This document shows positions 15,251 through 32,000 of a DNA stretch of 32,000 nucleotides, in pieces (positions within the stretch are counted from its first letter, which is position 1; each line of letters starts with the position of its first letter). A model generated the notes under the pieces. That model did not search any database. It saw nothing but the letters and a program-made list of their open reading frames with translations, and was not told where the DNA came from. This stretch comes from Bdellovibrionales bacterium (GTDB taxonomy: Bacteria > Bdellovibrionota > Bdellovibrionia > Bdellovibrionales > UBA1609), in the NCBI GenBank assembly GCA_965247685.1, contig OZ252021.1, positions 90,001 through 122,000 on the forward strand, in the 5' to 3' direction. A program made the translations under genes and the position numbers.

Positions 15251-15263
15251 AGTTTTTTATTCC

Positions 15264-15842: not shown

Positions 15843-16378
15843 TAAGATTCACCTACTGCACGAAGTTGTTTTTGCATCTCTTGATTTTGAAAAGTATAAG
15901 CATGACATATAGCTACGGCCAAAGCATCTGACTGATCTAGATAATTCATAGGCTCACTTAAATTAAGAATATTTTGAACAATGTAGGCGATACTTTCTTT
16001 GCTTGCAGAGCCTAAACCTGTGACTGATTTCTTAATGTAACGAACATCATACTCAAAAACCTGACAAGACCAGCGATAGGCTTCACTGCACCCTATACCA
16101 AAAGCCTGCCCAATTTTAAACGCACTGTTTGGATTTTTTCCAAGAAACATTTTTTCTAAAGCTACATGCTGCACAGGATATTTTTCAAAGACACTCGTCA
16201 ACTGTTGATTTATCTCATGCAATCTATCCCCTACTACTTTCTTATGAGATTCTAAAACTCCACTATGAATATGTTTTAAACCTGCAGAATTAATAGACAA
16301 CACTCCATATCCCATTCTAAAAGTACCAGGGTCTAAACCCATGATACTCAAACCTTCGTCATTCCATTCTTTTTTCAT
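15842..16378 (-). CDS. ruvC: Crossover junction endodeoxyribonuclease RuvC
   Basis: 178 aa with the RNase H-like start GLDPGTFRMGYGVL and DQSDALAVAICHA near the C-terminus. An alternative start is the in-frame ATG at 16342 (MGLDPG). The stop overlaps the ruvA start, giving a ruvCAB operon. Confidence 0.9.
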   Translation of the reverse strand: MKKEWNDEGLSIMGLDPGTFRMGYGVLSINSAGLKHIHSGVLESHKKVVGDRLHEINQQLTSVFEKYPVQHVALEKMFLGKNPNSAFKIGQAFGIGCSEAYRWSCQVFEYDVRYIKKSVTGLGSASKESIAYIVQNILNLSEPMNYLDQSDALAVAICHAYTFQNQEMQKQLRAVGES

Positions 16379-16552
16379 AAACTAAACCTTACTGCTTATT
16401 ATCACTAATTATTTTCCTAGAATCCACGCCTTATACATATACTGCCCTATGGGCTTGACATTCACTCCTTTAAAAGACTCACACTTTTCTTTGACTTTAA
16501 AATGAAAATTTTGGTAAGAATCTATCATCTATGAAATTTAATAGGACTTTTA

Positions 16553-17257
16553 ATGAATAGGCACTCTTCAAATCACTCAAAATTATCTAAACCAGAGATT
16601 AAGTTTATTAATCAAAGTTTAAAAGCCCTTTACAAAAACCCCAAATCTTTAGTTTTTGCTCCTTTGGCCGACTTTTTTCGTCGCAACAAATTTTATAAAA
16701 AAGCACTTTTTATTTGCCTCAAAGGTGTGCATCAAAACCCTTCTTATGCAAAGGGTTATACCGTGTTAGGCTCCATTTACTTTGACCAAACTCAATATGA
16801 AAAAGCAATTCAAACCTTTGAACAAGCACTAGAATTAGAACCAAAAAATATGCTTGCTCTTCGCTCCCTAAGTCAGCTCTATATTCTCACGCGAAATGTT
16901 CCAAAACTTAAAGAAATATATGAAGTTCTCATACTCTATAACCCTCATGATCCGCATATTCAAAAAATAACACAAACACTCCATTCTGCACATTTGAAAG
17001 ATTATGATTACTTTACAGAAAAGACTATTTCAGAAATTTGCCAAGATTTATCTCAAGTCGAATTAGAAAAAAGACCTGTGCTTAAACCTTTTCACACTTC
17101 TCCGTGGAAACAACCTACACCCACCGTTGAGAGTATTCAGAAACTGATAAACCACTTTCCAAAACCAAACAACAAACATATCCCTATAACTGCTAAAGAA
17201 AAAAAAGAAAAACAGATTCACGCTTTGAAAAATTTACTCCATCAACTCAACTCTTAA
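16553..17257 (+). CDS. TPR-repeat protein, function unknown
   Basis: 234 aa. TPR-like helical pairs include YAKGYTVLGSIYFDQTQYEKAIQTFEQALELEPKNMLALRSLSQLY. Confidence 0.65.
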   Translation: MNRHSSNHSKLSKPEIKFINQSLKALYKNPKSLVFAPLADFFRRNKFYKKALFICLKGVHQNPSYAKGYTVLGSIYFDQTQYEKAIQTFEQALELEPKNMLALRSLSQLYILTRNVPKLKEIYEVLILYNPHDPHIQKITQTLHSAHLKDYDYFTEKTISEICQDLSQVELEKRPVLKPFHTSPWKQPTPTVESIQKLINHFPKPNNKHIPITAKEKKEKQIHALKNLLHQLNS

Positions 17258-17272
17258 TGAGGATAACTTTTT

Positions 17273-17845
17273 ATGTATGGGACTAGTGACTTTAAAAAAG
17301 GTTTAAAAGTATTAGTTAAAGATCAACCTTATGTGATTATAGATTTTCAACATGTTAAGCCAGGTAAAGGGAATCAATTTACTCGAACAAAAATGAAAAA
17401 TCTCATCACGGGCTCTAATTTAAATCTCACTGTTCGATCCGGTGAGAAGTTTAAAATTCCAAATATTACATATAAAGAAATGGTGTTTTTATACCAAGAA
17501 GCTGATCAGTTTTATTTTATGGACAACTCAAATTACGAACAAATTTCTGTACATAAAGATTTGATGGAGAACACTCATTTCTTAAAAAGTGATTTACCAG
17601 TCACAGTTTGCCTCTACAATGACAATGCTATTAGTATTGAGCTCCCTAAATCCATCATAATGAAAATTAAAAAAACAGATCCAGGATTCAAGGGCAATAC
17701 AGTCACCAACACCTTTAAACCTGCAGAACTGGAAACAGGATTTTCGCTGCAAGTCCCTCTTCACATCAACGAAGGAGATGAAATTCGAGTGAGCACTGAA
17801 GACGGAACTTATATCGAAAGAGTGCAGCTGGCGAGCTCGAAATAA
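17273..17845 (+). CDS. efp: Elongation factor P
   Basis: 190 aa. The loop VKPGKGNQFTRTKMKNL carries the conserved Lys, in a three-domain EF-P layout. GAGGA lies upstream of the ATG. Confidence 0.95.
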   Translation: MYGTSDFKKGLKVLVKDQPYVIIDFQHVKPGKGNQFTRTKMKNLITGSNLNLTVRSGEKFKIPNITYKEMVFLYQEADQFYFMDNSNYEQISVHKDLMENTHFLKSDLPVTVCLYNDNAISIELPKSIIMKIKKTDPGFKGNTVTNTFKPAELETGFSLQVPLHINEGDEIRVSTEDGTYIERVQLASSK

Positions 17846-17900
17846 AACGGAGAGATTTATTCAAATGATTCAAATTGACAAAATTCTTTTTTCAAAAGAC

Positions 17901-17971
17901 GGTGGCGTGGCCGAGAGGTTAGGCAGTGGACTGCAAATCCATTTACATCGGTTCAAATCCGGTCGCCACCT
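17901..17971 (+). tRNA. tRNA-Cys (GCA)
   Basis: It folds by hand into a cloverleaf. The acceptor is GGTGGCG/CGCCACC, the anticodon stem is GTGGA/TCCAT with loop CTGCAAA (anticodon GCA), and the T arm is ATCGG-TTCAAAT-CCGGT. The discriminator is T and no CCA is encoded. Confidence 0.88.
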
Positions 17972-17988
17972 CATTTTAAATAAACTTT

Positions 17989-19404
17989 TTAGTAGGATTG
18001 AATTTGCTGAAAAGACTTCAATGTAAATAACAAGGAAAACTCAACATCTTTTAATGTGATATCTTTATGCCCTTCTAGGTCTGCAATCGTTCGAGCAACT
18101 CTTAAAATAGCCGTCTTTCGGCGATAAGAACTTATATACTCTGGTAAAATATTTTTAATAATAAAAGGATCTACTTTTTTTTCAAAATCAGACCAATTTA
18201 AAAGACTGTTAGGAATCTCTTGCCCTCGCTCCTGACGCATGGAAAAAGATTGACTCACCTCCTTCATTATTTCTTCTAAAGAAATAGCGAGAGGTCCTTT
18301 CCAAAAAGAAGATACAGATAAAATATCAAACCGATCGAGCATTGGACCACTTAGTTTCTCCAATCGAGAACGGCATCTTCTTAGTGAGTAAGAACAAGGA
18401 ATGGATTTATCGGGAACATAATACCCACAAGGGCATAAGTTGGTGGCAGCAACAAGAATAAACTGAGCAGGGAAAAACACCCCCTCCCCTCTTCTTGAAA
18501 TACAAATCTCTCTTCTTTCAATAGGCTCACGTAAAGCTTCTTGTACTGCACTTTTAAATTCTAGGTACTCATCTAAAAAAAGTATTCCTCCGTGAGCTTT
18601 AGATACTTCTCCCATAAATGGAGGAAAACCTCCTCCGATCATAGATAGTAAAGGTGTACTATGGTGAGGATACACAAAAGGTCTCCAAGAAGTATCTTTG
18701 CTAAACAAACGAGATATTTTTTTAATCTCTTTAAATAAAGAAAGTGATGGTGGATTCAAAATACATTCCAAACAGCGAGCCAAAGTCGTTTTACCAGAAC
18801 CAGGCTCCCCAGCTAACAATATAGAGTGTTCACCACTTGACACAATTTTTAAAAGCCATGCTGAGTTTTCAGAAAACAAAAGAGAAGGAAGACATGGTCT
18901 TTTGAGGTAAGAAGATAGAGATTGAGCTTTGATTAACTTTGGAGATAAAAGATCACTGAGCGTTTCTACACTATAAACATTATGAAAATTTTCCTGATTT
19001 GTAAGACGGCCGGTAATGAGATGAGATTGATCGATTTGCATCCAATCCATTGGAGCTTCCACATTTCCACTGAGTGCTACTTCACCATAAACAAAGCAGT
19101 CTTCCTTGAACTGCGGAAATTGAACTTGATTAGTTTTATAAAGAAGTGCAACGGCAATAGCTAAGTCTAAACCTTGACTTGTTTTTTTGATATAAGCAGG
19201 ACGCACATTAATATTGACTTGTTTTTTATTAGGCCATTTGAAATTTTGTAATGAGAAAGCTGTTTTCAAACGAGAAACACTTTCTTTAATAGAAGTGTCT
19301 ACAGAGCCCGTAAACTCCACCTTAGGAAGTCCGGGAGTCAAAGAAAGCTCTACCTCACAAGGAATCAGCCGATGACCATCTTGTACATAAGATCGAATAC
19401 GCAT
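17989..19404 (-). CDS. comM: YifB/ComM family Mg-chelatase-like AAA+ ATPase
   Basis: 471 aa with a Lon-protease-like N-terminal domain (GLPKVEFTGSVDTSIKES), Walker A LLAGEPGSGKTT, Walker B GILFLDEYLEF, and LSGPMLDRFD. Confidence 0.88.
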   Translation of the reverse strand: MRIRSYVQDGHRLIPCEVELSLTPGLPKVEFTGSVDTSIKESVSRLKTAFSLQNFKWPNKKQVNINVRPAYIKKTSQGLDLAIAVALLYKTNQVQFPQFKEDCFVYGEVALSGNVEAPMDWMQIDQSHLITGRLTNQENFHNVYSVETLSDLLSPKLIKAQSLSSYLKRPCLPSLLFSENSAWLLKIVSSGEHSILLAGEPGSGKTTLARCLECILNPPSLSLFKEIKKISRLFSKDTSWRPFVYPHHSTPLLSMIGGGFPPFMGEVSKAHGGILFLDEYLEFKSAVQEALREPIERREICISRRGEGVFFPAQFILVAATNLCPCGYYVPDKSIPCSYSLRRCRSRLEKLSGPMLDRFDILSVSSFWKGPLAISLEEIMKEVSQSFSMRQERGQEIPNSLLNWSDFEKKVDPFIIKNILPEYISSYRRKTAILRVARTIADLEGHKDITLKDVEFSLLFTLKSFQQIQSY

Positions 19405-19549
19405 AACATGGATCTATTATGCAAATCCGTGTCCTCATTTATTAAAATTTTGTGTTTTAAATAAGACCTTAAGTGAAAATTAGGGATAAATAATGTCCGA
19501 GTTTTGCCATAGTGTCCAAATTCGGTCACATTTCATTCAGATGTGGTTT

Positions 19550-20056
19550 TTATTGAGAGCTTTTCCAACGCACTTCAATATCACCAAAATCCTCTTTTGT
19601 ATCTTCATCTTTTAAAGACCAGTCTTCTTCGTCGATGACTGTATCTAAATCTCTTTTTGCTATTTCTTTTTCAAACAAAGTTTCTTGCACTAAAGAAAGT
19701 AAATGATCTTGTCCTTTTTCAATTTCTTCTTCTTCTTCCTCTGCGACTACAGAAGCAGGTATTCTTTTATCTGGATTGACAATACTTTTGGAATCTTCTT
19801 TTTGTATTTTTACAAGCTTAGGCTCCACTCTTTCTTTTGCAGAAACTGTTTCTGCTTTTCTAATTTTATCCAAATCGACCATTTTAGGAACTTGATCAAA
19901 AATTTCAGAAACTGGGGCAGTCTTTTGAGAAGAGGTGTTGTTTTTTTGTTGTTGAACTCTTTGATCTTCTTTTTTTACTGAGTTATTTCTTTCACCAAAA
20001 GAGTAAAAAGAGGAGCATAATGCCGCAACAAAGAATATCTTGAATAAAACTCTCAT
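19550..20056 (-). CDS. Hypothetical secreted acidic protein
   Basis: The track ORF runs 19550-20143, but the internal ATG at 20054-20056 begins a signal-peptide-like MRVLFKIFFVAALCSSFYSF. The rest is low-complexity and Glu/Asp/Lys-rich (AEEEEEEIEKG). I recognise no family. Confidence 0.5.
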   Translation of the reverse strand: MRVLFKIFFVAALCSSFYSFGERNNSVKKEDQRVQQQKNNTSSQKTAPVSEIFDQVPKMVDLDKIRKAETVSAKERVEPKLVKIQKEDSKSIVNPDKRIPASVVAEEEEEEIEKGQDHLLSLVQETLFEKEIAKRDLDTVIDEEDWSLKDEDTKEDFGDIEVRWKSSQ

Positions 20057-20184
20057 AGAGAGCTCATCGGAAAAAATAGAGAAATTCTCAAGAGAGAAAA
20101 TCTGAAGAATCTTCAAAGAAACCCAATCAAATAACCATTTCATATAGCTATCAGTAGCAAATCCCTAGCCAGAAGCCCTGATTC

Positions 20185-20253
20185 AGTTTTTTTCGTTTTG
20201 GATCGACTCTTAAAATAACTTGCAAAATGGAGCGGGTGAAGGGATTCGAACCC
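20185..20253. repeat. 69-bp direct repeat, copy 1 (tRNA-Gly 3' end plus trailer)
   Basis: ag(t)ttttttcgttttggatcgactcttaaaataacttgcaaaatggagcgggtgaagggattcgaaccc is identical to 20363-20431 except for one base. Confidence 0.9.
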
Positions 20254-20295
20254 GGAGACCAACGTAGGCAAACGTCGGAGTTGGTCGAGTCATCC
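20228..20295 (-). pseudogene. Decayed partial tRNA-Gly copy (intact T-arm, 3' acceptor strand and CCA; no 5' acceptor strand)
   Basis: The minus strand reads ..ccgacgtttgcctacgttggtctccGGGTTCGAATCCCTTCACCCGCTCCA. The 3' 26 nt are identical to the real tRNA-Gly and a TTGCC anticodon-like string is retained. No GCGGGTG partner exists upstream and the anticodon and D stems do not pair. Confidence 0.55.
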
Positions 20296-20344
20296 TGTAA
20301 TATCAAGATCGAACACTTCTCTAGCTTTGTTAAAATTCTCTAAG

Positions 20345-20371
20345 AAAAAAGCTACACAGGTTAGCTTTTTT
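20345..20371 (-). terminator. Weak A/T-flanked hairpin downstream of tRNA-Gly
   Basis: aaaaaagcta-cacaggt-tagctttttt forms a palindromic stem with A-run and T-run arms. On the minus-strand RNA it is a hairpin followed by a U-run. Confidence 0.35.
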
Positions 20372-20431
20372 CGTTTTGGATCGACTCTTAAAATAACTTG
20401 CAAAATGGAGCGGGTGAAGGGATTCGAACCC
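20363..20431. repeat. 69-bp direct repeat, copy 2 (3' part of functional tRNA-Gly plus trailer)
   Basis: See 20185-20253. The offset between copies is 178 bp. Confidence 0.9.
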
Positions 20432-20481
20432 TCGGCCTCAACCTTGGCAAGGTCGCACTCTACCAGCTGAGCTACACCCGC
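20406..20481 (-). tRNA. tRNA-Gly (GCC), CCA encoded
   Basis: The reverse complement is GCGGGTGTAGCTCAGCTGGTAGAGTGCGACCTTGCCAAGGTTGAGGCCGAGGGTTCGAATCCCTTCACCCGCTCCA. It has a 7-bp acceptor stem, anticodon stem CGACC/GGTTG with loop TTGCCAA, and T arm GAGGG-TTCGAAT-CCCTT. Length is 76 nt. Confidence 0.92.
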
Positions 20482-20589
20482 ATATTGAAAATGGATAAGA
20501 ATTTGTAACACTTTGATACTAAAATGTCACTCATTCTAATGCCTCTAAATTGCATATTTTTTAATATTTTGTTACTTTAAAGCAAGAAG

Positions 20590-21273
20590 ATGAAAAAACT
20601 TTGCTTGCTTATTTTTATTTTATTCAGCTTTAACGCCTTTGCAGAAAAACATTATAGTTGCTTGCACAAAGAAACTGGAACAGGTGTTACTTTTTCTGTG
20701 TCAGACTTTAGTGGCATTCAAGTCGATCACATGGACTTTCCTCCAAAAATCATAAGTTCTTTACAAAAGAGTTATAAAGATCATTTAGATGCAAAAACTC
20801 CGAGTGGATACTATAACATTCAAATCACAGATCAATTGGCACAAGTGAACTATATACAAGATACAGTTTTGACAAGTATAAAATCTCCAACTGGAAAATC
20901 AGTTAAAGAAGGAACAAAAACTTTTGATAAACTTTATAGGGGTGAGCATCAACAAATCGTTCGCTTACATATTATCTGTCCAAGCTTAATAACTTTCAGT
21001 TTAAATCTTAAAACTCACAAGCTCACTGAGACTTCTACTTATTTAGAGCACCCAAGAAAAGGAACTAAAATTTATTTTGATACCAAAAAGAGAAAAAAAT
21101 CAACTGGTCATGTGTATCCTGTAAAAAGAGAACCTATGACGGATCAAGAAGTAAAAAAATATTTTTCAAAATACTCTAATCAACCCATTTACCAAAAGGA
21201 ATACTCGTGTGAATCCATGAATACCTTTAAAGGAAATTTTACTCATTGGATAAAAACGCTGTTCTTTCCATAA
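20590..21273 (+). CDS. Hypothetical secreted protein
   Basis: 227 aa with a clear signal peptide, MKKLCLLIFILFSFNAFA/EK. I recognise no family. Confidence 0.6.
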   Translation: MKKLCLLIFILFSFNAFAEKHYSCLHKETGTGVTFSVSDFSGIQVDHMDFPPKIISSLQKSYKDHLDAKTPSGYYNIQITDQLAQVNYIQDTVLTSIKSPTGKSVKEGTKTFDKLYRGEHQQIVRLHIICPSLITFSLNLKTHKLTETSTYLEHPRKGTKIYFDTKKRKKSTGHVYPVKREPMTDQEVKKYFSKYSNQPIYQKEYSCESMNTFKGNFTHWIKTLFFP

Positions 21274-21290
21274 TTTATTTTTAAATAATT

Positions 21291-21325
21291 TATAATAAAA
21301 AAGGCGGTGAAAAACTCACTACCTT
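21291..21325 (-). terminator. Rho-independent-type terminator closing the ankyrin-gene array / 23S fragment
   Basis: The minus-strand RNA reads AAGGTAGTGA-GTTTT-TCACCGCCTT (9 of 10 positions paired) followed by TTTTTTATTAT. It could also serve the convergent 20590-21273 gene. Confidence 0.55.
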
Positions 21326-21448
21326 CTTACGCCCATGGAAGATAGAGACCTAGCTGTCTCACGATGTTCTGAACCCAGCTCGTGTGCCTCTTTATTTAGC
21401 AAACAACCAAACCCTTGGGACATGCTTCAGCCCCAGGATGGGATGAGC
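21320..21448 (-). pseudogene. Isolated fragment of 23S rRNA domain V (about E. coli 2509-2630; helices ~90-93 including the A-loop)
   Basis: The minus strand reads GCTCATCCCATCCTGGGGCTGAAGCATGTCCCAAGGGTTTGGTTGTTTGCTAAATAAAGAGGCACACGAGCTGGGTTCAGAACATCGTGAGACAGCTAGGTCTCTATCTTCCATGGGCGTAAGAAGG. It is colinear with the conserved 23S stretch GGCUCAUCACAUCCUGGGGCUGAAG...GAGCUGGGUUUAGAACGUCGUGAGACAGUUCGGUCCCUAUCUGCCGUGGGCG. No other rRNA sequence lies on either side. Confidence 0.8.
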
Positions 21449-21470
21449 TTGTAGTTAAAGAATTTCAGTC

Positions 21471-23933
21471 TCATTTCAAAAGCTGAATGAATTTCTCACG
21501 ATATTCACCATTAGTGTTCTTCTTTGCAAAATCAAGAGCCATATGACCATATTTATTTTTAGAATTTTTATTAGCTCCACTCTCTACCAAGTACTCCGCG
21601 ATGTCTAGATTTCCTTTCCCTGCTGCGTACATGAGTGCTGTATAACCATTTATATTTGTGGCATCTATATCAGCTCCCCGAGCCAGCAAAAAATCCACAA
21701 ATTCTCGATCCCCTTCCTCTGCTGCTTGAATGAGAGCTGTCTCACCCCATCTATTTTTGGCATCTATATCAGCTCCTCTAGCCAGCAAAAAATCCACAAA
21801 TTCTCGATCCCCTTTCTTTGCTGCGTACATGAGGGCTGTCTCACTAAAAAAACTTCTAGCATTTATATCTAATAATATCTTAAATTTAGAATTTAAAACC
21901 TCCTCTATCTGCTGTTCGTTTTCAGAAAAAAATACTTGAGAAATCTGCCTTATAAACTCTCTCTTATAAGATACTCTTACATCTTTCCAATTACTCATCT
22001 CTCCTATAATAATTTTCTGCTCTTTTTCTGAAAAGAATTCTAACTGAGTAGATAAAAAATCTAAATCTACATCGACTCTCTTTCCTAGCTCTAAATTGAT
22101 TCTCTTTTTTAGCTCCCATTGAATTAAAGTAAATAAAGTCAACTTTCTGACTCTAGAATCAATATCTTGACCCTCTATTTTGTCCTTTAAATAACTTTTA
22201 ACATATTCTGAAGTGATATTGAGTCCTTCGATTTCTTTTAAGGATAACAAGTTATTTAAAAACTTTATCTGATCCTCTGTCTCATTGGATTTTCCTAACG
22301 AAAGTACAGGTTCATATAAACCTCTAACACTTAATTCTTCAGACGCTGTTTGTGGAATATATATTTCACCCGGTCTAATCGTAATATTATCCAGTCCCCT
22401 GCCTTCTCCCTCTAACACCAACATATCTAATCCCTTATCAGCTCTTGAATACTCTTTTGAATATCTATTTTCAAATTGGTATTCATTAGGATGAGGTTGG
22501 AACTTTCTTAAACGAACTTTTAACTGAGGTAAAATCTTCTCCTTAAGATAGCCCCTTGTTATATCATCATTGGAGATGCCATCATGATCTCCTACATTTT
22601 TAGGGAGACCTAGTTTATATCCTAATTCCTTTAAACTCAGTCTTATACCTTCTAGTGTAGGAAGAAGTAAATGATTGGGAAAGTCTTGTATCTTATCAAC
22701 AAAAGCTACCTGCTCCTTTTCTCCTCTTTCATTTTCAGCAGAACCCAAGACTACTGCAATATGCCCTGAAGATTTATAATTCTCACCTGTCAAAGTAAAA
22801 TAAAGATAATTAGGATCTAAAGCTTTCTCAAAATAATATTCCGTCGCGCAATCTCCACTCAAACAGGATCTAAATGGGGACTCTTGTATGGATAAGCTTC
22901 TCAATCGAAGAGTTTTCCTATAACCTTCCTTATTGGGCTGATTTTTTATATCATCTTCTATTCTTAGCAGTTGTGTAGAAACATCTTCATTAGGTTTAAC
23001 ATTTAAGGATTCTCTTAACTCAGAAAAATGCCCTTCAAATCCTAACTCAATCGCTATAACATTTCTTTCTGATAAAATTTTACGAACAGCATCTATTCTC
23101 TCTATTGGATTTTTACTTTTCAAAGAAGCCTCATAAAGAGGATTTCCAAAACCTGCTGTATCCACTAAATCCACCATAGCTTGTGATATGTATCGAACAT
23201 CTCTTTTATCTGCCAATAACTGATCTCTTGCTTCATTTAAAATCTTATAGAATCCTATGATTTTTTCCCTATAAGGAATGGAAGAGTTTTCTATAAATTT
23301 CAAATTTTCTTCGCTGATGAATTTCTTAAAATAATCTTTAAAACCTTCCATTTGTTTTTGTTTAAACTGTTTTCGTTCTTCTCTGTTTAAATTGGAAGAT
23401 GGTGGAGATTTTTGAACATCAAGTATTTTATGCCAAAATCCAATATTGGCTTCTATTTGAAATAAATTATTTCTTCGCCTCTTAGATGATTTTTTAAAGT
23501 TTTGGATAAATTGAATCAAACTTTGAGATTGTTCATATTCTTTAATAGAAATTTCCAGAATCTGCTCTCGAAGAGATGGCTTAGAAAGTTCAGGATATTT
23601 TTCTAAAATTTGAAACAGAAGAGTAAAATTGTTGTCTTTATCTATTTTTTCATTAAAATTTCCAAACCAATTTTTTAAATATAATTTCAATAAATCTTTC
23701 TGTTCCTTTCCAAGCAATAAGCCTTTAGTCATCGCTTCTGCAAAGGTTGTTGGAATCTCAGGGTTTGTATAAGCTCTTACTGGTTGTCCAGAAAAGATTT
23801 TGTTCCTAAAAAGCTTTCTACATAGGTCTTTTGTGTAGGTTTGAGAAGGCAGTATAAGCAAAACCATCATAGAAACGTAGAAGACTCTTTTATATCTGTA
23901 CTGAAAACTACTTTTTAATCCTTTAAATATCAT
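21471..23933 (-). CDS. Array gene A: signal-anchor + conserved unknown module + ~4 ankyrin repeats
   Basis: 820 aa, starting MIFKGLKSSFQYRYKRVFYVSMMVLLIL. The ankyrin consensus (..TALM.AA..G....V.FLL..GADI.) occupies the last ~133 aa (nt ~21474-21872). GAGGA lies 9 nt upstream of the ATG. Confidence 0.85.
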   Translation of the reverse strand: MIFKGLKSSFQYRYKRVFYVSMMVLLILPSQTYTKDLCRKLFRNKIFSGQPVRAYTNPEIPTTFAEAMTKGLLLGKEQKDLLKLYLKNWFGNFNEKIDKDNNFTLLFQILEKYPELSKPSLREQILEISIKEYEQSQSLIQFIQNFKKSSKRRRNNLFQIEANIGFWHKILDVQKSPPSSNLNREERKQFKQKQMEGFKDYFKKFISEENLKFIENSSIPYREKIIGFYKILNEARDQLLADKRDVRYISQAMVDLVDTAGFGNPLYEASLKSKNPIERIDAVRKILSERNVIAIELGFEGHFSELRESLNVKPNEDVSTQLLRIEDDIKNQPNKEGYRKTLRLRSLSIQESPFRSCLSGDCATEYYFEKALDPNYLYFTLTGENYKSSGHIAVVLGSAENERGEKEQVAFVDKIQDFPNHLLLPTLEGIRLSLKELGYKLGLPKNVGDHDGISNDDITRGYLKEKILPQLKVRLRKFQPHPNEYQFENRYSKEYSRADKGLDMLVLEGEGRGLDNITIRPGEIYIPQTASEELSVRGLYEPVLSLGKSNETEDQIKFLNNLLSLKEIEGLNITSEYVKSYLKDKIEGQDIDSRVRKLTLFTLIQWELKKRINLELGKRVDVDLDFLSTQLEFFSEKEQKIIIGEMSNWKDVRVSYKREFIRQISQVFFSENEQQIEEVLNSKFKILLDINARSFFSETALMYAAKKGDREFVDFLLARGADIDAKNRWGETALIQAAEEGDREFVDFLLARGADIDATNINGYTALMYAAGKGNLDIAEYLVESGANKNSKNKYGHMALDFAKKNTNGEYREKFIQLLK

Positions 23934-24224
23934 CCCATTAAATCCTCTAATGCATTATAAAAGGTTTTTATAATTGTTAAATATCACTCCAATTAACTCC
24001 TGTTAGAGACGAGCTATATGAAAAAAACTACTTTTATTTATGTAAAGATAAACTATCACGATGCACTGAAAATATCCATCAAACAAGAGTGAAGTGTGTA
24101 ATTTTTACACTTACCTTAGAATACTCATCCCACTCGCCTAAGTTGGTTTACGGTACAGGCAACATTAAAAACGTACTGTTTAGTTTTATTTTGTTGAATT
24201 ACCATTGGATGAGCCTAAAGAGTC
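23934..24224. repeat. Conserved inter-paralogue leader/spacer, copy 1 (upstream of gene A)
   Basis: It is alignable over its whole length with 27024-27311 and 30144-30465. On the minus strand it contains an RBS (23943-23947) and a TATAAT box (23954-23959). Confidence 0.85.
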
Positions 24225-27023
24225 TCATCTCAAGAGCCGAATGAGTTTCTTAAGATGTTTCCTATTAGCGTTCATCTTTGCAATATCAAGAGCCGTCTCA
24301 CCATTTTTATTTTTAGGATTTTTATTAACTCCACTCTTTACCAATAACTCCACGATTTCTAGATTCCCATGCCTTACTGCTTCCATGAGGACTGTAACAC
24401 CATATATATCTGTGACATCTATATTAGCTCCATTCTCCAACAATAACTCCACGAGTTTTGGATTCTTCCCTATCCCTGCTGCGTGCATGAGGGCCCGATT
24501 ATCATTAATTATGGAATTTCGACTAACTCCTCTATCCAGCAAGAACTGCACGAGTTTTGGATTCCCAGACATCACTGCGACCGTGAGAGTCGAAGAACCA
24601 TATTCATCTTTGAAATCCATATCAGCTCCTCTATTCAGCAAGAACTTCACGAAGTCTAGATCCCCTTTCCTTGCTGCTTCCATCAGAGCCGTGCTAGTAG
24701 CTGTAACATTTGTATCAGCTACAACATTTATATCAGCTCCTCTATCCAGCAAAAAATCCACAAATTCTCGATCGTCTCTCTTTGTTGCTTCAATGAGTGC
24801 TGTCCAACCAGATTTATTTTTGGCATTTATATCCAATAATATCTTAAATCTGGAATTTAAAGCCTTTTCTATTTTCTGTTTGTTTTCAGAAAACAATACT
24901 TGAGAAACCTGCCGTATAAACTCTCTCTTATAAGATACTCTTACATCTTTCCAATTACTCATCTCTCCTATAATAAATTTCTGCTCTTTTTCTGAAAATA
25001 ATTCTAACTGAGTAGATAAAAACTCTAAATCCAAACTGATTCTCTTTTTTAACTCCCATTGAATTAAAGTAAATAAAGCCAACTTTCTGACTTTAAAATC
25101 AATATCTTTACCCTTTATCTTATCACTTAAATAAGTTTCAACATATTCTGAAGTGATATTGAGTTCTTCGATTTCTTTTAAAACTAACAAGTTTTTTAAA
25201 AAATTTATCTGATCTTCTGCATTATTGGATTTTTCTAACAAAAATACGGGTTCAGATAAACCTCTAACACTTAATGCTTTAGACGCTGTTTGTGGAATAT
25301 ATATTTCACCTGGTCTAATCGTAATATTATCCAGTCTCCTGTCTTCTCCTCCTAACACCAACATATCTAATCCCTTATCAGCTCTTGAACGCTCTTTTGA
25401 ATACTCATTTTCAAATGGGTATTCATTAGGATAAGGTTGAAACTTTCTTAAACGAACTTTTAACCGAGGTAAAATCTTCTCCTCAAAATAGCTCCTTGTT
25501 ATACCATTATTGGAGATACCAGTATCAGAATCTCCTACATCTTTAGGAAGACCTAGTTTATATCCTAATTCCTTTAAACTCAGTCTTATACCTTCTAGTG
25601 TAGGAAGAATTAAATCATTGGGAATTTCTTGTATTTTATCAACAAAAGCTACCTGTACCTTTTCTCCTCTTTCATTTTCAGCAGAACCCAAGACTACTGC
25701 AATATGCCCTGAAGACTTAGAATCCTCATCTGTCAAAGTAAAATAAAGATAATTAGGATCTAAAGCTTTCTTAAAATAAGATGCCGTCGCACAATCTCCA
25801 CTCAAACAGGATCTAAATGGGGACTCTTGTATGGATAAGCTTCTCAATCGAAGAGTTTTCTTATAACCTTCCTTATTGGGCTGATTTTTTATATCATCTT
25901 CTATTCTTAGCAGTTGTGTAGAAACATCTTCATTAGGTTTAACATTTAAGGATTCTCTTAACTCAGTAAATTGCCCTTCAAATCCTAACTCAATCGATAT
26001 AATATTTCTTTCTGATAAAATTTTACGAACAGCATCTATTTTCTCTATTGGATTCTTACTTTTTAAAGCTTTCTCATAAAGAGGATTTCCAAAACCTGCT
26101 GCATCTACTAAATCCACCATAGCTTGTGATATGTATCGAACTTCTTTTTTATCAATCAATAACTGATCTCTTGCTTCATTTAAAATAGTATAGAATCCTA
26201 TGATTTTTTCCCTATAAAGAATGGAAGAGTTTTCTATAAATTTCAAATTTTCTTCGCTGATGAATTTCTTAAAATAATCTTTAAAACTTTCCAATTGTTC
26301 TTCTCTGTTTAAATTGGAAGATAATGAAGCTTTTTGAAAATCAAATATTTTATGCCAAAATCCAATATTGGCTTCTATTTGAAATAAATTATTTCTTCGC
26401 TTCTTAGATGACTTTTTAAAGCTTTGGATAAATTGAATCAAACTTCGAGATGGTTCATATTCTTTAATAGAAATTTCCATAATCTGATCTCGAAGAGGTG
26501 GTTTAGAAAGTTCAGGATATTTTTTGAAAACTTGAAACAGAAGAGTGAATTCTTTGTCTTTATCTATTTTTTCACTAAAATCTCCAAACCAATTGTTTAT
26601 ATATAATTTCAATAAATCTGCCTCCTCCTCTCTAGATAATAAGCCTTGAGTCATCGCTTTTACAAAGGCTTCTGGAGTCTTAGGATTTGTCTCAACTCTA
26701 AGACCTTTTGTCATCTCTTCTGCAAAGGCTGTTGGAATCTCAGGCTTTACCTCAGCTCTAAGACCCTTTGTCATCGCTTCTGCAAAGGCTGTTGAAATCT
26801 CAGGTTTTACCTCAACCCTTACTACTTCTGAAGAAGGCTGACTTTTTAGATCTTTTCTTACTGGTTGTCCAGAAAAGACTTTATTTCTAATATTAATAAA
26901 AAGCTTTCCACATAGGTCTTTTGTGTAGGTTTGAAAAGGCAGTACAAGCAAAACCACCATAGAAACGTAGAAGACTCTTTTATATCTGTACTGAAAACTA
27001 CTTTTTAATCCTTTAAATATCAT
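24225..27023 (-). CDS. Array gene B: signal-anchor + conserved unknown module (with 3x20-aa insert) + ~6 ankyrin repeats
   Basis: 932 aa with the same N-terminus and module as A. The ankyrin tail is the last ~203 aa (nt ~24228-24836). This is the most divergent copy. Confidence 0.85.
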   Translation of the reverse strand: MIFKGLKSSFQYRYKRVFYVSMVVLLVLPFQTYTKDLCGKLFINIRNKVFSGQPVRKDLKSQPSSEVVRVEVKPEISTAFAEAMTKGLRAEVKPEIPTAFAEEMTKGLRVETNPKTPEAFVKAMTQGLLSREEEADLLKLYINNWFGDFSEKIDKDKEFTLLFQVFKKYPELSKPPLRDQIMEISIKEYEPSRSLIQFIQSFKKSSKKRRNNLFQIEANIGFWHKIFDFQKASLSSNLNREEQLESFKDYFKKFISEENLKFIENSSILYREKIIGFYTILNEARDQLLIDKKEVRYISQAMVDLVDAAGFGNPLYEKALKSKNPIEKIDAVRKILSERNIISIELGFEGQFTELRESLNVKPNEDVSTQLLRIEDDIKNQPNKEGYKKTLRLRSLSIQESPFRSCLSGDCATASYFKKALDPNYLYFTLTDEDSKSSGHIAVVLGSAENERGEKVQVAFVDKIQEIPNDLILPTLEGIRLSLKELGYKLGLPKDVGDSDTGISNNGITRSYFEEKILPRLKVRLRKFQPYPNEYPFENEYSKERSRADKGLDMLVLGGEDRRLDNITIRPGEIYIPQTASKALSVRGLSEPVFLLEKSNNAEDQINFLKNLLVLKEIEELNITSEYVETYLSDKIKGKDIDFKVRKLALFTLIQWELKKRISLDLEFLSTQLELFSEKEQKFIIGEMSNWKDVRVSYKREFIRQVSQVLFSENKQKIEKALNSRFKILLDINAKNKSGWTALIEATKRDDREFVDFLLDRGADINVVADTNVTATSTALMEAARKGDLDFVKFLLNRGADMDFKDEYGSSTLTVAVMSGNPKLVQFLLDRGVSRNSIINDNRALMHAAGIGKNPKLVELLLENGANIDVTDIYGVTVLMEAVRHGNLEIVELLVKSGVNKNPKNKNGETALDIAKMNANRKHLKKLIRLLR
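26641..26820. repeat. In-frame 60-bp tandem repeat, 3 copies, inside gene B
   Basis: 26641-26700, 26701-26760 and 26761-26820 align in register. They encode (E)VKPEI(S/P)TAFAE(A/E)MTKGLR x3. Genes A and C have a single unit. Confidence 0.9.
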
Positions 27024-27311
27024 CCCATTAAATCCTCTAATGCGTTATTAAATATAAAAGGTTTTTATATTTGTTAAATGTCATTTCAATTAACTCCTGT
27101 TAGTGACGAGCTATATGAAAAAAAACTATTGTCATTGATATAAAGATAAACTATCACGATGCACTGAAAATATCCATCAAACAGGAGTGAAGTGTGTAAT
27201 TTTTACACTCACCCGAGTTGATTTACGGTACAGGTGATATTGAAAATATACTGTTTAGTTTAGTTTTCTTTTGTTGAATTTTTAATTACCATTGGATGAG
27301 TCTAAAGAGTC
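27024..27311. repeat. Conserved inter-paralogue leader/spacer, copy 2 (upstream of gene B)
   Basis: Homologous to 23934-24224, with small indels. Confidence 0.85.
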
Positions 27312-30143
27312 TCATCTCAAGAGCCGAATGAGCTCCTCACGACGATGTTCATTATTAATTTTAACGCTCTTCTCTGCAAAATCAAGAGCCGTCAACCCAT
27401 CTTTATTTGTGGCATCTTTATTAGCTCCTCTCTCCAACAAGAGTCTCACGATTTCTAGATACCCTTTCTCTACTGCTATCATGAGGGCTGTATCACCATC
27501 TTCATTTTTGCCATCTTTTTTAGCTCCACTCTCCAACAAGAGTCTCACGATTTCTGGATGCCCATGCCTTGCTGCATATATGAGGACTGTATCACCAAAT
27601 CCATCTTTGGCATTGACATCAGCTCCACTCTCCAACAAGAGCTTCACAAGTTTTAAATTCCCAATTATTGCTGCATGACTGAGGGCTGTAGAACCAAATC
27701 TATTTTTGGCATCTTTTTTAGCTCCATTATTCAGCAAGAACTTCACGATTTTTAGATCCCCTCCCTCTACTGCAAACATAAGGACCGTAGTACCACCTGC
27801 ATTTTTGTTATTTAGATCAGCTCCACTCTCCAACAAGAATCTCACGATTTCTAGATCCCCTTTCCTTGCTGCTTCCATAAGAGCCGTGCCAGTAAATCCA
27901 GTTACAACATTTAGATCAGCTGCAACATTTAGATCAGCTGCAACATTTAGATCAACTACAACATTTAGATCAGCTCCACTCTCCACCAAGAGCTTCATAA
28001 GTTTTAAATTCCCAATTATTGCTGCATACACAAGAACTGGAACACCATGTGAATTTATGGTATTTACATCTAATAATATCTTAAATCTGGAATTTAAAGC
28101 CTTTTCTATTTTCTGTTTGTTATAAGAAAAAAATACTTGAGAAATCTGCCTTATAAACTCTCTCTTATAAAATACTCTTACATCTTTCCAATTACTCATC
28201 TCTCCTATAATAACTTGTTGCTCTTTTTTTGAAAATAATTCTAACTGAGTAGATAAAAAATCTAAATCTACATCGACTCTCTTTCTTAGCTCTAAATTGA
28301 TTCTCTTTTTTATCTCCCATTGAATTAAAGTAAATAAAGCCAACTTTCTGACTCTAGAATCAATATCTTGACCCTCTATTTTGTCCTTTAAATAATTTTT
28401 AACATATTCTGAAGTGATATTGAGTTTTTCGATTTCTTTTAAGGATAACAAGTTATTTAAAAACTTTATCTGATCCTCTGCATTATTGGATTTTTCTAAC
28501 GAAAGTACGTGTTTATATAAACCTTTAACACTTAATGCTTTAGACGCTGTTTGTGGAATATATATTTCACCCGGTCTAATCGTAATATTATCCAGTCTCC
28601 TGCCTTCTCCCTCTAACACCAACATATCTAATCCCTGATCAGCTCTTGAATACCTATTTTTAAATGGGTATTCATTAGGATGAGGTTGAAACTTTATTAA
28701 ATGAACATTTAACCGAGGTAAAATCTGCTCCTCAATATATCCACTTGTTATACCATTATTGGAGATACCATTAAGATCCCCTACATCTTTAGGAAGACCT
28801 AATTTATATCCTAATTCCTCTAAACTCAGTCTTATACCTTCTAGTGTAGGAAGAAGTAAATGATTGGGAAAGTCTTGTATCTTATCAACAAAAGCTACCT
28901 GCTCCTTTTCTCCTCTTTCATTTTCAGCAGAACCCAAGACTACTGCAATATGCCCTGAAGATTTATAATTCTCACCTGTCAAAGTAAAATAAAGATAATT
29001 AGGATCTAAAGCTTTCTCAAAATAATATTCCGTCGCGCAATCTCCACTCAAACAGGATCTAAATGGGGACTCTTGTATGGATAAGCTTCTCAATCGAAGA
29101 GTTTTCCTATAACCTTCCTTATAGGGCTGATTTTCTATATCATTTTCTATTCTTAGCAGTTGTGTAGAAACATCTCCATTAGATTTAACATTTAAGGATT
29201 CTCTTAACTCAGTAAATTGCCCTTCAAATCCTAACTCAATCGCTATAGCATTTCTTTCTGATATAATTTTACGAACAGCATCTATTCTCTCTATTGGATT
29301 TTTACTTTTCAAAGAAGCCTCATAAAGAGGATTTCCAAAACCTGCTGTATCCACTAAATCCACCATAGCTTGTGATATGTATCGAACATCTCTTTTATCT
29401 GCCAATAACTTATCTCTTGCTTGTTTTAAAATCTTATAGAATCCTATAACTTTTTCCCTATAAGGAGTGGAAGAGTTTTCTATAAATTTCAAATTTTCTT
29501 CATTGATGAATTTATTAAAATAATTTTTAAAATCTTCCACTTGTTTTTGTTTCCACTCTTTTCGTTTTTGCCCTTTTAAATTGGAAGATGGTGGAGCTTC
29601 TTGAAAATCAAGTATTTTATGCCAAAATCCAATATTGGCTTCTATTTGAAATAAATTATTTCTTCGCCTCTTAGATGATTTTTTAAAGTTTTGGATAAAT
29701 TGAATCAAACTTTGAGATTGTTCATATTCTTTAATAGAAATTTCCAGAATCTGCTCTCGAAGAGATGGTTTAGAAAGTTCAGGATATTTTTCTAAAATTT
29801 GAAACAGAAGAGTGAAATATTTGTCTTTATTTATTTTTTCATTAAAATCTCCAAACCAATTTTTTAAATATAATTCCAATAAATCTGCTTGTTTCTCTCC
29901 AAGAAATAAACCTTGAGTCATCGCTTCTGCAAAGGCTCTTGGAGTCTTAGGTTTTGTCTTAGATTTTGTATCAGCTCTTACTGATTGTCCAGAAAAGACT
30001 TTATTTCTAATATTGATAAAAAGCTTTCTACATAGGTCTTTTGTGTAGGTTTGAGAAGGCAGTATAAACAAAACCACCATAGAAATGTAGAAGACTCTTT
30101 TATATCTGTACTGAAAACTACTTTTTAATCCTTTAAATATCAT
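27312..30143 (-). CDS. Array gene C: signal-anchor + conserved unknown module + ~7 ankyrin repeats
   Basis: 943 aa. The N-terminal two thirds are nearly identical to A. The ankyrin tail is the last ~253 aa (nt ~27315-28073). Confidence 0.85.
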   Translation of the reverse strand: MIFKGLKSSFQYRYKRVFYISMVVLFILPSQTYTKDLCRKLFINIRNKVFSGQSVRADTKSKTKPKTPRAFAEAMTQGLFLGEKQADLLELYLKNWFGDFNEKINKDKYFTLLFQILEKYPELSKPSLREQILEISIKEYEQSQSLIQFIQNFKKSSKRRRNNLFQIEANIGFWHKILDFQEAPPSSNLKGQKRKEWKQKQVEDFKNYFNKFINEENLKFIENSSTPYREKVIGFYKILKQARDKLLADKRDVRYISQAMVDLVDTAGFGNPLYEASLKSKNPIERIDAVRKIISERNAIAIELGFEGQFTELRESLNVKSNGDVSTQLLRIENDIENQPYKEGYRKTLRLRSLSIQESPFRSCLSGDCATEYYFEKALDPNYLYFTLTGENYKSSGHIAVVLGSAENERGEKEQVAFVDKIQDFPNHLLLPTLEGIRLSLEELGYKLGLPKDVGDLNGISNNGITSGYIEEQILPRLNVHLIKFQPHPNEYPFKNRYSRADQGLDMLVLEGEGRRLDNITIRPGEIYIPQTASKALSVKGLYKHVLSLEKSNNAEDQIKFLNNLLSLKEIEKLNITSEYVKNYLKDKIEGQDIDSRVRKLALFTLIQWEIKKRINLELRKRVDVDLDFLSTQLELFSKKEQQVIIGEMSNWKDVRVFYKREFIRQISQVFFSYNKQKIEKALNSRFKILLDVNTINSHGVPVLVYAAIIGNLKLMKLLVESGADLNVVVDLNVAADLNVAADLNVVTGFTGTALMEAARKGDLEIVRFLLESGADLNNKNAGGTTVLMFAVEGGDLKIVKFLLNNGAKKDAKNRFGSTALSHAAIIGNLKLVKLLLESGADVNAKDGFGDTVLIYAARHGHPEIVRLLLESGAKKDGKNEDGDTALMIAVEKGYLEIVRLLLERGANKDATNKDGLTALDFAEKSVKINNEHRREELIRLLR
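27906..27977. repeat. In-frame 18-bp tandem repeat, 4 copies, inside the ankyrin tail of gene C
   Basis: aacatttagatcagctgc x4 (27906-23, 27924-41, 27942-59, 27960-77) encodes ADLNVV-VDLNVA-ADLNVA-ADLNVV. Confidence 0.9.
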
Positions 30144-30465
30144 CCCATTAAATCCTCTAATGCATTATTAAATATAAAAGGTTTTTATAATTGTTAAATG
30201 TCATTCCAATTAACTCCTGTTAGAGACGAGCTATATGAAAAAAAACTACTTTTATTTATGTAAAGATAAACTATCACGATGCACTGAAAATATCCATCAA
30301 ACAAGAGTGAAGTGTGTAATTTTTACACTTACCTTAGAATACTCATCCCACTCGCCTAAGTTGGTTTACGGTACAGGCAACATTAAAAACGTACTGTTTA
30401 GTTTAGTTTTCTTTTGTTGAATTTTTCATTACCATTAGATGAGCTATGGTTAAAGAATTTCAGTC
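30144..30465. repeat. Conserved inter-paralogue leader/spacer, copy 3 (upstream of gene C)
   Basis: Homologous to 23934-24224 and 27024-27311. Confidence 0.85.
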
Positions 30466-32000
30466 TCATTTCAAAAGCTGAATGAATTTCTCACGATATT
30501 CACCATTAGTGTTCTTCTTTGCAAAATCAAGAGCCATATGACCATATTTATTTTTAGAATTTTTATTAGCTCCACTCTCTACCAATAACTCTACGATTTT
30601 TAGATACCCATGCCTTGCTGCATACATGAGGGCTGTCTGACCATTTTTACTTTTGGCATTTTTATTAGCTCCACTCTCCACCAATAACTCCGCGATGTCT
30701 AGATTTCCTTTCCCTGCTGCGTACATGAGTGCTGTATAACCATTTATATTTGTGGCATCTATATCAGCTCCCCGAGCCAGCAAAAAATCCACAAATTCTC
30801 GATCCCCTTCCTCTGCTGCTTGAATGAGAGCTGTCTCACCCCATCTATTTTTGGCATCTATATCAGCTCCTCTAGCCAGCAAAAAATCCACAAATTCTCG
30901 ATCCCCTTTCTTTGCTGCGTACATGAGGGCTGTCTCACTAAAAGAACTTCTAGCATTTATATCCAATAATATCTTAAATTTAGAATTTAAAACCTCCTCT
31001 ATCTGCTGTTCGTTTTCAGAAAAAAATACTTGAGAAATCTGCCTTATAAACTCTCTCTTATAAAATACTCTTACATCTTTCCAATTACTCATCTCTCCTA
31101 TAATAACTTGTTGCTCTTTTTTTGAAAATAATTCTAACTGAGTAGATAAAAAATCTAAATCTACATCGACTCTCTTTCCTAGCTCTAAATTGATTCTCTT
31201 TTTTAGCTCCCATTGAATTAAAGTAAATAAAGTCAACTTTCTGACTCTAGAATCAATATCTTGACCCTCTATTTTGTCCTTTAAATAACTTTTAACATAT
31301 TCTGAAGTGATATTGAGTCCTTCGATTTCTTTTAAGGATAACAAGTTATTTAAAAACTTTATCTGATCCTCTGTCTCATTGGATTTTCCTAACGAAAGTA
31401 CAGGTTCATATAAACCTCTAACACTTAATTCTTCAGACGCTGTTTGTGGAATATATATTTCACCCGGTCTAATCGTAATATTATCCAGTCCCCTGCCTTC
31501 TTCCTCTAGCACCAACATATCTAATCCCTGATCAGCTCTTGAATACTCATCTGAATACTCATTTTCAAATGGGTATTCATTAGGATGAGGTTGAAACTTT
31601 CTTAAACGAACTTTTAACTGAGGTAAAATCTTCTCCTTAAGATAGCCCCTTGTTATATCATCATTAGAGATGTCATTATGATCTCCTACATTTTTAGGGA
31701 GACCTAGTTTATATCCTAATTCCTTTAAACTCAGTCTTATACCTTCTAGTGTAGGAAGAAGTAAATGATTGGGAAAGTCTTGTATCTTATCAACAAAAGC
31801 TACCTGCTCCTTTTCTCCTCTTTCATTTTCAGCAGAACCCAAGACTACTGCAATATGCCCTGAAGATTTATAATTCTCACCTGTCAAAGTAAAATAAAGA
31901 TAATTAGGATCTAAAGCTTTCTCAAAATAATATTCCGTCGCGCAATCTCCACTCAAACAGGATCTAAATGGGGACTCTTGTATGGATAAGCTTCTCAATC
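30466..32000 (-). CDS. Array gene D (5' end beyond the window): conserved unknown module + ~5 ankyrin repeats
   Basis: The open frame reaches the window edge. The M at 31998 in the ORF track is a TTG (Leu in the paralogues: ..LRLRSLSIQ), so the gene is truncated by the window. The 3' ~100 nt and the downstream flank are identical to gene A. Confidence 0.85.
   Translation of the reverse strand, partial: LRSLSIQESPFRSCLSGDCATEYYFEKALDPNYLYFTLTGENYKSSGHIAVVLGSAENERGEKEQVAFVDKIQDFPNHLLLPTLEGIRLSLKELGYKLGLPKNVGDHNDISNDDITRGYLKEKILPQLKVRLRKFQPHPNEYPFENEYSDEYSRADQGLDMLVLEEEGRGLDNITIRPGEIYIPQTASEELSVRGLYEPVLSLGKSNETEDQIKFLNNLLSLKEIEGLNITSEYVKSYLKDKIEGQDIDSRVRKLTLFTLIQWELKKRINLELGKRVDVDLDFLSTQLELFSKKEQQVIIGEMSNWKDVRVFYKREFIRQISQVFFSENEQQIEEVLNSKFKILLDINARSSFSETALMYAAKKGDREFVDFLLARGADIDAKNRWGETALIQAAEEGDREFVDFLLARGADIDATNINGYTALMYAAGKGNLDIAELLVESGANKNAKSKNGQTALMYAARHGYLKIVELLVESGANKNSKNKYGHMALDFAKKNTNGEYREKFIQLLK

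Follow-up and report, generated by a model that had tools for sequence, protein, structure and literature searches.

The stretch of DNA considered here, 32,000 nucleotides of contig OZ252021.1 (positions 90,001 to 122,000 of the forward strand; assembly GCA_965247685.1, a Bdellovibrionales bacterium) and referred to below as the window, carries four paralogous genes, A to D, which form a head-to-tail array on the reverse strand from 21471 to 32000, separated by spacers of ~290 bp. Each gene contains a strongly conserved block of 72 amino acids (aa), and this block, its predicted fold and its probable function are the subject of the present analysis. The features of the array are listed below, with residue numbers following gene A.

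21471..23933, reverse strand: gene A, 820 aa, with a signal peptide, a ~630-aa module without a database match and C-terminal ankyrin repeats (open reading frame (ORF) list, translation)
24225..27023, reverse strand: gene B, paralogue of 932 aa, block at 25629-25844
27312..30143, reverse strand: gene C, paralogue of 943 aa, block at 28875-29090
30466..32000, reverse strand: gene D, paralogue truncated on its 5' side by the end of the window, block at 31780-31995
22686..22901, reverse strand: the 72-aa block of gene A, aa 345-416, covering the end of β1, α1, α2, β2, β3 and β4 (translation, DSSP of the AlphaFold2 model)
22359..22934, reverse strand: predicted GNAT-fold domain of gene A, aa 334 to ~525 (AlphaFold2 models, Foldseek against PDB, translation)
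22848..22865, reverse strand: Cys loop C357-L-S-G-D-C362, end of α1 and α1-α2 loop (translation, conservation counts)
22695..22763, reverse strand: His391 (start of β3) to Asp413 (C-terminal end of β4) (translation, counts, strand limits)
22491..22493, reverse strand: codon of His481, the first residue of the conserved β6-β7 insertion, after β6 (counts)
23820..23933, reverse strand: N-terminal Sec-type signal peptide and Cys38 (N-termini of 120 homologues)
21471..21866, reverse strand: variable partner domain at the C-terminus of gene A, made of ankyrin repeats, aa ~690-820 (match to Pfam Ank families at E = 1e-45; 99-nt tandem repeats)

Translated on the reverse strand, 22686-22901 reads RSLSIQESPFRSCLSGDCATEYYFEKALDPNYLYFTLTGENYKSSGHIAVVLGSAENERGEKEQVAFVDKIQ, exactly as the first-pass annotation of this DNA had given it for gene A, and the same block recurs in B, C and D. 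The numbering of the key residues, C357, C362, H391 and D413, was likewise correct, as were their spacings of 29 or 34 residues and then 22. From this order the annotation had proposed an invariant Cys...His...Asp block, a candidate catalytic core resembling the triads of papain-like and transglutaminase-like enzymes and of arylamine N-acetyltransferases (NATs).

Conservation of the block beyond the array

The invariance of the block in the four copies carries little weight because the paralogues are too recent; copies A, C and D show zero nucleotide differences over its 216 nt. Overall identity among the paralogues is 78-97%, and the synonymous divergence (dS) between them is only 0.03-0.12 over residues 60-689. 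Between A and B, nonsynonymous changes affect 7 of the 72 codons of the block and 51/278, 22/124 and 28/141 codons of the flanking regions, so that, inside the window, divergence of the block is lower than that of its flanks by a factor of only about two. The ratio of nonsynonymous to synonymous divergence (dN/dS) between paralogues, a value that rests on few substitutions, is ~1 over the module, 1.4-1.5 in the N-terminal helical region (residues 60-344) and 0.46 in the block. As far as they go, these comparisons suggest that the copies duplicated recently and that selection outside the core has been relaxed or diversifying.

Distant homologues are more informative. A search with residues 1-689 of gene A returned 221 proteins, the best 120 of which, excluding the window's own copies, are 34-46% identical over most of the query and make up the alignment used here. 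The family is small, tight and isolated, because a profile of the core domain, run against 1.84 billion representative proteins, yields just 303 clusters at 50% identity, 257 of them with E < 1e-30. In the 120-protein alignment, mean column identity falls from 0.81 (residues 341-360) through 0.79 (361-380) and 0.71 (381-400) to 0.62 (401-420), and it does not exceed 0.65 in any other 20-residue window; residues 341-420 are thus the best conserved stretch of the whole protein, which bears out the first-pass annotation on this point.

Residue counts, taken over 231 aligned domain matches, single out a set of polar and structural positions. C357 is present in 226 and C362 in 230 of the 231, the sole exception for the latter being a gapped partial match; D361 is found in 225, and D413 in 227 with Glu in the remaining 4. 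Equally constant are R345 (229), E351 (229), R355 (228), T380 (230), T382 (229), S388 (230) and G397 (230), while K414 (217) and Q416 (223) complete a near-invariant motif, D413-K414-x-Q416. Judged from these alignments, the conserved block, with both cysteines and the aspartate, is real and far beyond chance, and it is very probably the functional core of the family.

Position 391 behaves differently from the two cysteines and Asp413, so that only part of the supposedly invariant Cys...His...Asp series survives in remote homologues. It is His in 137 of the 231 sequences and Gln in 75, the remainder being Tyr, Ala, Phe or Asn; the His/Gln exchange is scattered across the family, and a mutual-information search for a column compensating it found none. 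The catalytic His of a Cys-His-Asp triad cannot be Gln, and H391 is ruled out as a triad histidine because Gln stands in its place in about a third of the homologues. It is probably an exchangeable hydrogen-bond partner, as Gln replaces it. The better conserved histidine of the domain is His481 (200/231).

The cysteines, for their part, vary in a manner that bears on their role. The family consensus of the Cys loop is C-L-G-G-(S)-D-C, and the two cysteines are separated by 4 residues in 125 sequences, by 5 in 103 and by 6 in 2. C362 is never lost. Four sequences lack C357, and three of these have gained a Cys within a few residues: P0037 (YLCESDC), P0152 (GCRSFLGGSDC) and P0193 (RPGRCC). A lost C357 is usually offset by a nearby new Cys, and selection therefore acts on the pair. 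In these sequences, the variable spacing and the relocation would fit a disulfide-closed loop, or some other two-Cys function, better than a lone positioned nucleophile. Conserved Cys pairs in exported proteins commonly end up as disulfides.

A predicted GNAT-like fold

As judged by sequence comparison, the family is without a counterpart in Pfam, NCBIfam or the PDB. Residues 1-689 of gene A have no match in PDB sequences, NCBIfam, PADLOC or PHROGs, Pfam recognizes only ANK in gene A (residues ~670-815), and scans of 40 family members with Pfam gave nothing recurrent. Weak sequence matches to mL44, AP-3 delta, a tautomerase and ApmA were dismissed at E > 0.1. Public protein names reflect the C-terminal partner only ('ankyrin repeat protein', 'formylglycine-generating enzyme', 'SUMF1/EgtB/PvdO family'), and no description of the family was found in the literature on Bdellovibrionota and ankyrin, Bdellovibrio and GNAT, or Pseudobdellovibrionaceae genomes.

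Structure prediction was more productive. An AlphaFold2 model of residues 1-689, built on 119 aligned sequences, has a mean predicted local distance difference test score (pLDDT) of 88.9 and a predicted template modelling score of 0.84, with 519 residues at a pLDDT of at least 90. According to DSSP, its elements are β1 334-346, α1 352-359, α2 364-367, β2 376-382, β3 388-400, β4 406-416, α3 420-435, β5 440-444, α4 457-470 and β6 473-480, after which residues 481-503 form a long, conserved insertion and residues 517-524 the final strand. In this predicted structure, residues 334-480 follow the core order of the GNAT superfamily (Pfam clan CL0257, Acetyltrans-like), β1-α1-α2-β2-β3-β4-α3-β5-α4-β6, and 517-524 supplies the place of β7. 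Moreover, a Gln stands at the start of the β4-α3 loop and a conserved Asn opens α4, as in GNATs; Q416 precedes α3 by 3-4 residues, the point at which motif A of GNATs starts.

A separate model of the domain (residues 325-540; pLDDT 84.3) was compared with the PDB by Foldseek, and all 50 best matches are GNAT acetyltransferases, at E values from 4.8e-4 to 4.5e-3, probabilities of 0.95-1.0 and, for single-domain targets, target-normalised template modelling (TM) scores of ~0.42-0.54. Among the matches are GmvT (9ils, E = 4.8e-4), SpeG (3tth), meta-AAC0020 (5u08), AAC(6')-Ih (4e8o), Gcn5 (1m1d), TacT (7ak8) and the GNAT domain of ICL2, so that the nearest structures include toxin acetyltransferases of the GmvT/TacT/AtaT type, the spermidine N-acetyltransferase SpeG, AAC(6') aminoglycoside acetyltransferases and Gcn5. 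The full-length model leads to the same superfamily: its sole high-probability local matches in the PDB are GNATs, namely GmvT (0.97), YhbS (0.92) and AAC(6')-Ih (0.91), with NatD, TacT, KacT and AtaT also found, and in the viral structure library BFVD its high-probability local matches are confined to acetyltransferase, GNAT and N-myristoyltransferase domains. On these models, the block is best read as the N-terminal arm, from the end of β1 to β4, of a highly divergent GNAT-fold domain spanning residues 334 to ~525.

These structural results also bear on the proposed triad, in which Cys357 or Cys362 would work with His391 and Asp413 as in papain, transglutaminase or arylamine NATs. The family does share with those enzymes the linear order and spacing of Cys...His...Asp and the hydrophobic strands after His and around Asp; both cysteines and Asp413 are near-invariant, and a His391-Asp413 contact is plausible in the model by the register of β3 and β4, since H391 begins β3, D413-K414-x-Q416 sits at the C-terminal end of β4 and H391 should, judged by that register, be diagonal to D413 on the same sheet face. 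However, the His is not conserved and has no compensating column, the predicted fold differs, and papain-like, transglutaminase-like or arylamine-NAT structures are absent from the listed Foldseek matches in the PDB and BFVD, the top 50 for the domain being GNATs throughout. Nor does Pfam report a peptidase, a transglutaminase or PF00797 at E <= 1 in gene A and the 40 members. In the model, moreover, helix α1 contains C357 and the α1-α2 loop contains C362, so that neither cysteine occupies the N-terminus of a nucleophile helix, and Cys357 shifts by 2-4 positions among homologues, which a positioned nucleophile would not tolerate. A triad enzyme is accordingly very improbable, and the fold suggested by the first-pass annotation gives way to a predicted GNAT-like one; its intuition of a catalytic core was probably right insofar as the block is the conserved functional core. 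The arylamine NATs that it named are close in chemistry to the predicted GNAT domain and differ from it in fold and mechanism.

Export, proposed activity and the Cys loop

Signal peptides were judged by inspection and by regular expressions applied to the N-termini of 120 homologues. Nearly all full-length homologues begin with a Sec-type N-terminus, in which charged residues are followed by a hydrophobic core and then by a small-x-small site. A third cysteine, Cys38 (23820-23822 in gene A), is conserved in 112 of the 120 and lies 2-5 residues after the predicted cleavage site. An uncharged run of at least 10 residues precedes it in 88 of the 112 aligned homologues having that Cys. Of the 110 that extend 15 residues or more upstream of it, 102 have a small-x-small motif no further than 8 residues before it. 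Cys38 was also considered as a lipoprotein anchor, and this was rejected, since only 1/110 has a classical lipobox; the AlphaFold2 model is unconfident around this residue.

Within the ~630-aa module, the GNAT-like domain is embedded between two large helical regions. The Cys loop reaches pLDDT 81-91 in the full-length model as against ~52 in the isolated domain, which suggests that it packs against one flanking helical region. At its C-terminus the module is joined either to ankyrin repeats or to a domain of the FGE-sulfatase type (PF03781, C-type-lectin-like; FGE, formylglycine-generating enzyme), both of which are scaffolds for binding proteins or ligands.

The family is restricted in its distribution. 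Among 77 related loci, 76 come from metagenome-assembled Bdellovibrionota (Bdellovibrionales, Pseudobdellovibrionaceae, Bacteriovoracaceae, Bdellovibrionia and Oligoflexia) and one is labelled Nitrosovibrio; none of the 77 is from a cultured strain. Many of the related genomes are complete chromosomes of 1.4-2.0 Mb, and in many cases a genome holds several copies, often adjacent. The exceptional locus (L042, contig CALPVV020000094.1) is an 8-kb contig of a metagenome-assembled genome labelled 'Nitrosovibrio sp. Nv4' and is probably a binning error rather than a horizontal transfer.

Building on the observed conservation pattern, export signal, domain architecture, taxonomic restriction and predicted fold, we infer a transferase activity, its donor, the role of each residue and a disulfide. 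The resulting proposal, to which we give an about even chance of being right, is that the family comprises secreted, divergent GNAT-fold acyltransferase-like effectors whose acceptor site is covered by a disulfide or redox Cys loop. A thioester would supply an acyl group, which the GNAT-like domain would transfer to a target recruited with the help of the C-terminal domain. By analogy with GNATs, D413-K414-x-Q416 at the end of β4 and the β4-α3 loop would build the donor (pantetheine/pyrophosphate) side, while the α1-α2 Cys loop (C357...D361-C362) and the β6-β7 insertion (H481, Y485, S496, R497) would line the acceptor side; the placement of His481 near that side comes from GNAT topology only. 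The Cys pair would most simply be a disulfide that closes and stiffens the loop, possibly in a redox-sensitive manner, and His391 would be an exchangeable hydrogen-bonding residue on β3 rather than the catalytic base.

Several results weigh against this proposal. The structural similarity is moderate, with TM ~0.5 and root-mean-square deviations of 7-9 Å over long alignments and ~4 Å over 100-130 columns. Sequence offers no bridge to the GNATs: PDB searches with a single sequence and two profiles gave no GNAT or other match, no family of the GNAT clan appears at E <= 1 in the Pfam scans of the 40 members, and hhalign of the core profile against E. coli RimI returned a probability of 0.9%. The Q/RxxGxG/A pyrophosphate loop of motif A is absent, only Q416 being retained; in the 120 homologues, this Gln is followed by N/G, V/I and then position 419 (Pro in 72, Ser in 22), with no conserved Gly. 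The usual position of the general base on β4, 9-11 residues before motif A, is variable, and the α4 Tyr, Y462, is Phe in 81/231. Since neither the sequence comparisons nor the cofactor motif establishes a link, membership of the GNAT superfamily is a matter of predicted structure only. In addition, no experiments on any family member appear in the literature searched and, to our knowledge, an exported enzyme meets no acyl-CoA (CoA, coenzyme A) unless it is delivered into another cell; we know of no delivery route. An 11-column match to RimI, ALDPNF against AVDPDY, was rejected, the AlphaFold2 model placing the segment before β2 and not on β4.

The family, then, differs from GNATs in several ways: it shows no detectable sequence similarity to them, has lost the loop glycines and conserves neither a general base nor a general acid where GNATs usually carry them, while it possesses an invariant Cys pair in the α1-α2 loop, a conserved 20-residue β6-β7 insertion, a domain set within a ~630-aa module between helical regions, and signal-peptide export. 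The missing catalytic and CoA-loop residues would suit a non-catalytic GNAT-like scaffold, either a ligand sensor or binding module or a structural core that displays variable repeats. The acetyl-CoA-sensing GNAT domain of ICL2 from M. tuberculosis among the structural matches and the dN/dS of ~1 among paralogues point the same way. Yet more than a dozen polar residues are near-invariant in sequences otherwise 30-45% identical, a pattern typical of an active site, and the block has the lowest dN/dS, so that a mere scaffold appears doubtful.

The near-invariance of C362 (230/231), whereas C357 is occasionally replaced or displaced, raises a different catalytic possibility. In a GNAT fold with covalent thiol catalysis, Cys362 would be the nucleophile, through acyl ping-pong or attack on the substrate, perhaps aided by His481 or Asp361; Cys357 would be a resolving or capping partner, and the enzyme would stay oxidised and inactive until it reached a reducing compartment. 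The adjacent D361 (225/231), H481 (200/231) and the α1-α2 and β6-β7 loops, which would flank the acceptor site if GNAT topology holds, are consistent with this, as is the export of the protein, given that thioester donors are confined to the cell interior. However, most GNATs transfer directly without a covalent intermediate, H481 is not invariant, and the relocation of the partner Cys is equally compatible with a plain structural disulfide. Such chemistry is unlikely, albeit the strongest of the alternatives to the effector with a disulfide or redox loop.

An invariant Cys pair in a short Gly-rich loop beside an invariant Asp also brings a metal site to mind, in which the two cysteines with Asp361, His481 or another ligand would chelate Zn or Fe in a structural or catalytic role, and some acetyltransferases do carry zinc-binding elements. 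The domain has only two cysteines, though, its candidate His ligands are not invariant (H391 59%, H481 87%), and the variable Cys-Cys spacing and the CC variant would be unusual, which makes a metal site improbable.

The boldest version of the effector proposal would be a new enzyme family: an exported GNAT-fold effector, belonging to uncultured Bdellovibrionota with small genomes, that has abandoned the CoA loop and general base in favour of covalent catalysis by Cys362, with a Cys357 disulfide as an off-switch until the reducing interior of the prey or host is reached, target choice by ankyrin or FGE-like domains, and the tandem, fast-diverging paralogues as an arms-race repertoire of target specificities. 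This is speculative and, like the scaffold, doubtful.

With respect to known systems, the effector proposal finds a partial parallel in the enzyme-bearing ankyrin-repeat effectors that intracellular bacteria secrete, such as the Legionella Dot/Icm effector AnkX/LegA8, in which an enzymatic module (here an enzyme-like one) is likewise fused to ankyrin repeats in a bacterium living off other cells. In the present family, by contrast, the enzyme-like module comes first and is GNAT-like, a Sec signal peptide takes the place of a C-terminal type IV secretion system (T4SS) signal, and the bearers are Bdellovibrionota; the NCBIfam T4SS Ank models match the repeats only and stay far below cut-off (39 bits against a cut-off of 1400). 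Closer in phylum is Bd3460, reportedly an ankyrin-type self-protection protein of Bdellovibrio bacteriovorus (Lambert and co-workers, 2015, are said to have described it). On that account, the targets of ankyrin repeats in this phylum can be proteins of bacteria instead of eukaryotes, but Bd3460 is a small ANK-only immunity protein without the N-terminal module of the family.

Predatory Bdellovibrionota kill bacteria with secreted enzymes, of which few are known from members other than B. bacteriovorus. A secreted family that is confined to one lineage, has expanded and diverges fast, with a transferase-like predicted core and variable binding domains, has the architecture expected of effectors acting on other cells. 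If the activity is real, the family would represent a new branch of the GNAT superfamily with an unusual Cys-pair active-site loop and would open a way into the biology of uncultured Bdellovibrionales whose genomes measure 1-2 Mb; should the domain be inactive, only an annotation would have been corrected. Interest would rise considerably if the Cys pair were catalytic or a redox gate.

Genomic surroundings and minor features of the array

All ORFs of the 77 loci and of window positions 15001-32000 were clustered for an analysis of neighbours. Among the 77 loci, no conserved neighbour (immunity protein, carrier protein or operon partner) was found, and only the family's own copies recur widely. 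In nine loci, mostly of Pseudobdellovibrio type, the family gene adjoins a ~610-aa protein with a weak FhuF/IucC-like match (PF06276, E = 1.8e-5), located at 1172-2998 in L017 and with equivalents in L028, L029, L037, L038, L043, L046, L069 and L074. This neighbour starts with a signal-peptide-like N-terminus, and the window contains no such gene.

Around the array, the window carries housekeeping genes, including topA, metG, namZ, an SLT transglycosylase, ftsH, ruvABC and efp, at a guanine-plus-cytosine content of 32-36%. Directly downstream of the array lie two ORFs without a Pfam match, 19550-20143 on the reverse strand (197 aa) and 20590-21273 on the forward strand (227 aa).

Repeats are a further feature of the array. 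The number of 99-nt ankyrin units varies among the four copies. In gene B only, a 60-nt unit present 2.8 times (26650-26816, reverse strand) triplicates a 20-aa segment, EVKPEI(S/P)TAFAE(A/E)MTKGLR, that contains the conserved FAxAMTxGL motif at the module start, and in gene C an 18-nt unit present 3.9 times (27905-27975, reverse strand) encodes (A)ADLNV repeats placed between ankyrin repeats. Long ORFs with TTG starts on the forward strand, at 24205-24903, 27292-27678 and 27706-28125, run antisense to genes B and C and are most likely spurious, a by-product of the repeats that encode ankyrin units on the opposite strand. Elsewhere in the window, two overlapping forward-strand ORFs, 12655-13524 (289 aa, with a ComEC-type 'Competence' domain) and 13458-14294 (278 aa, without a Pfam match), could be a frameshifted or split ComEC-like gene.

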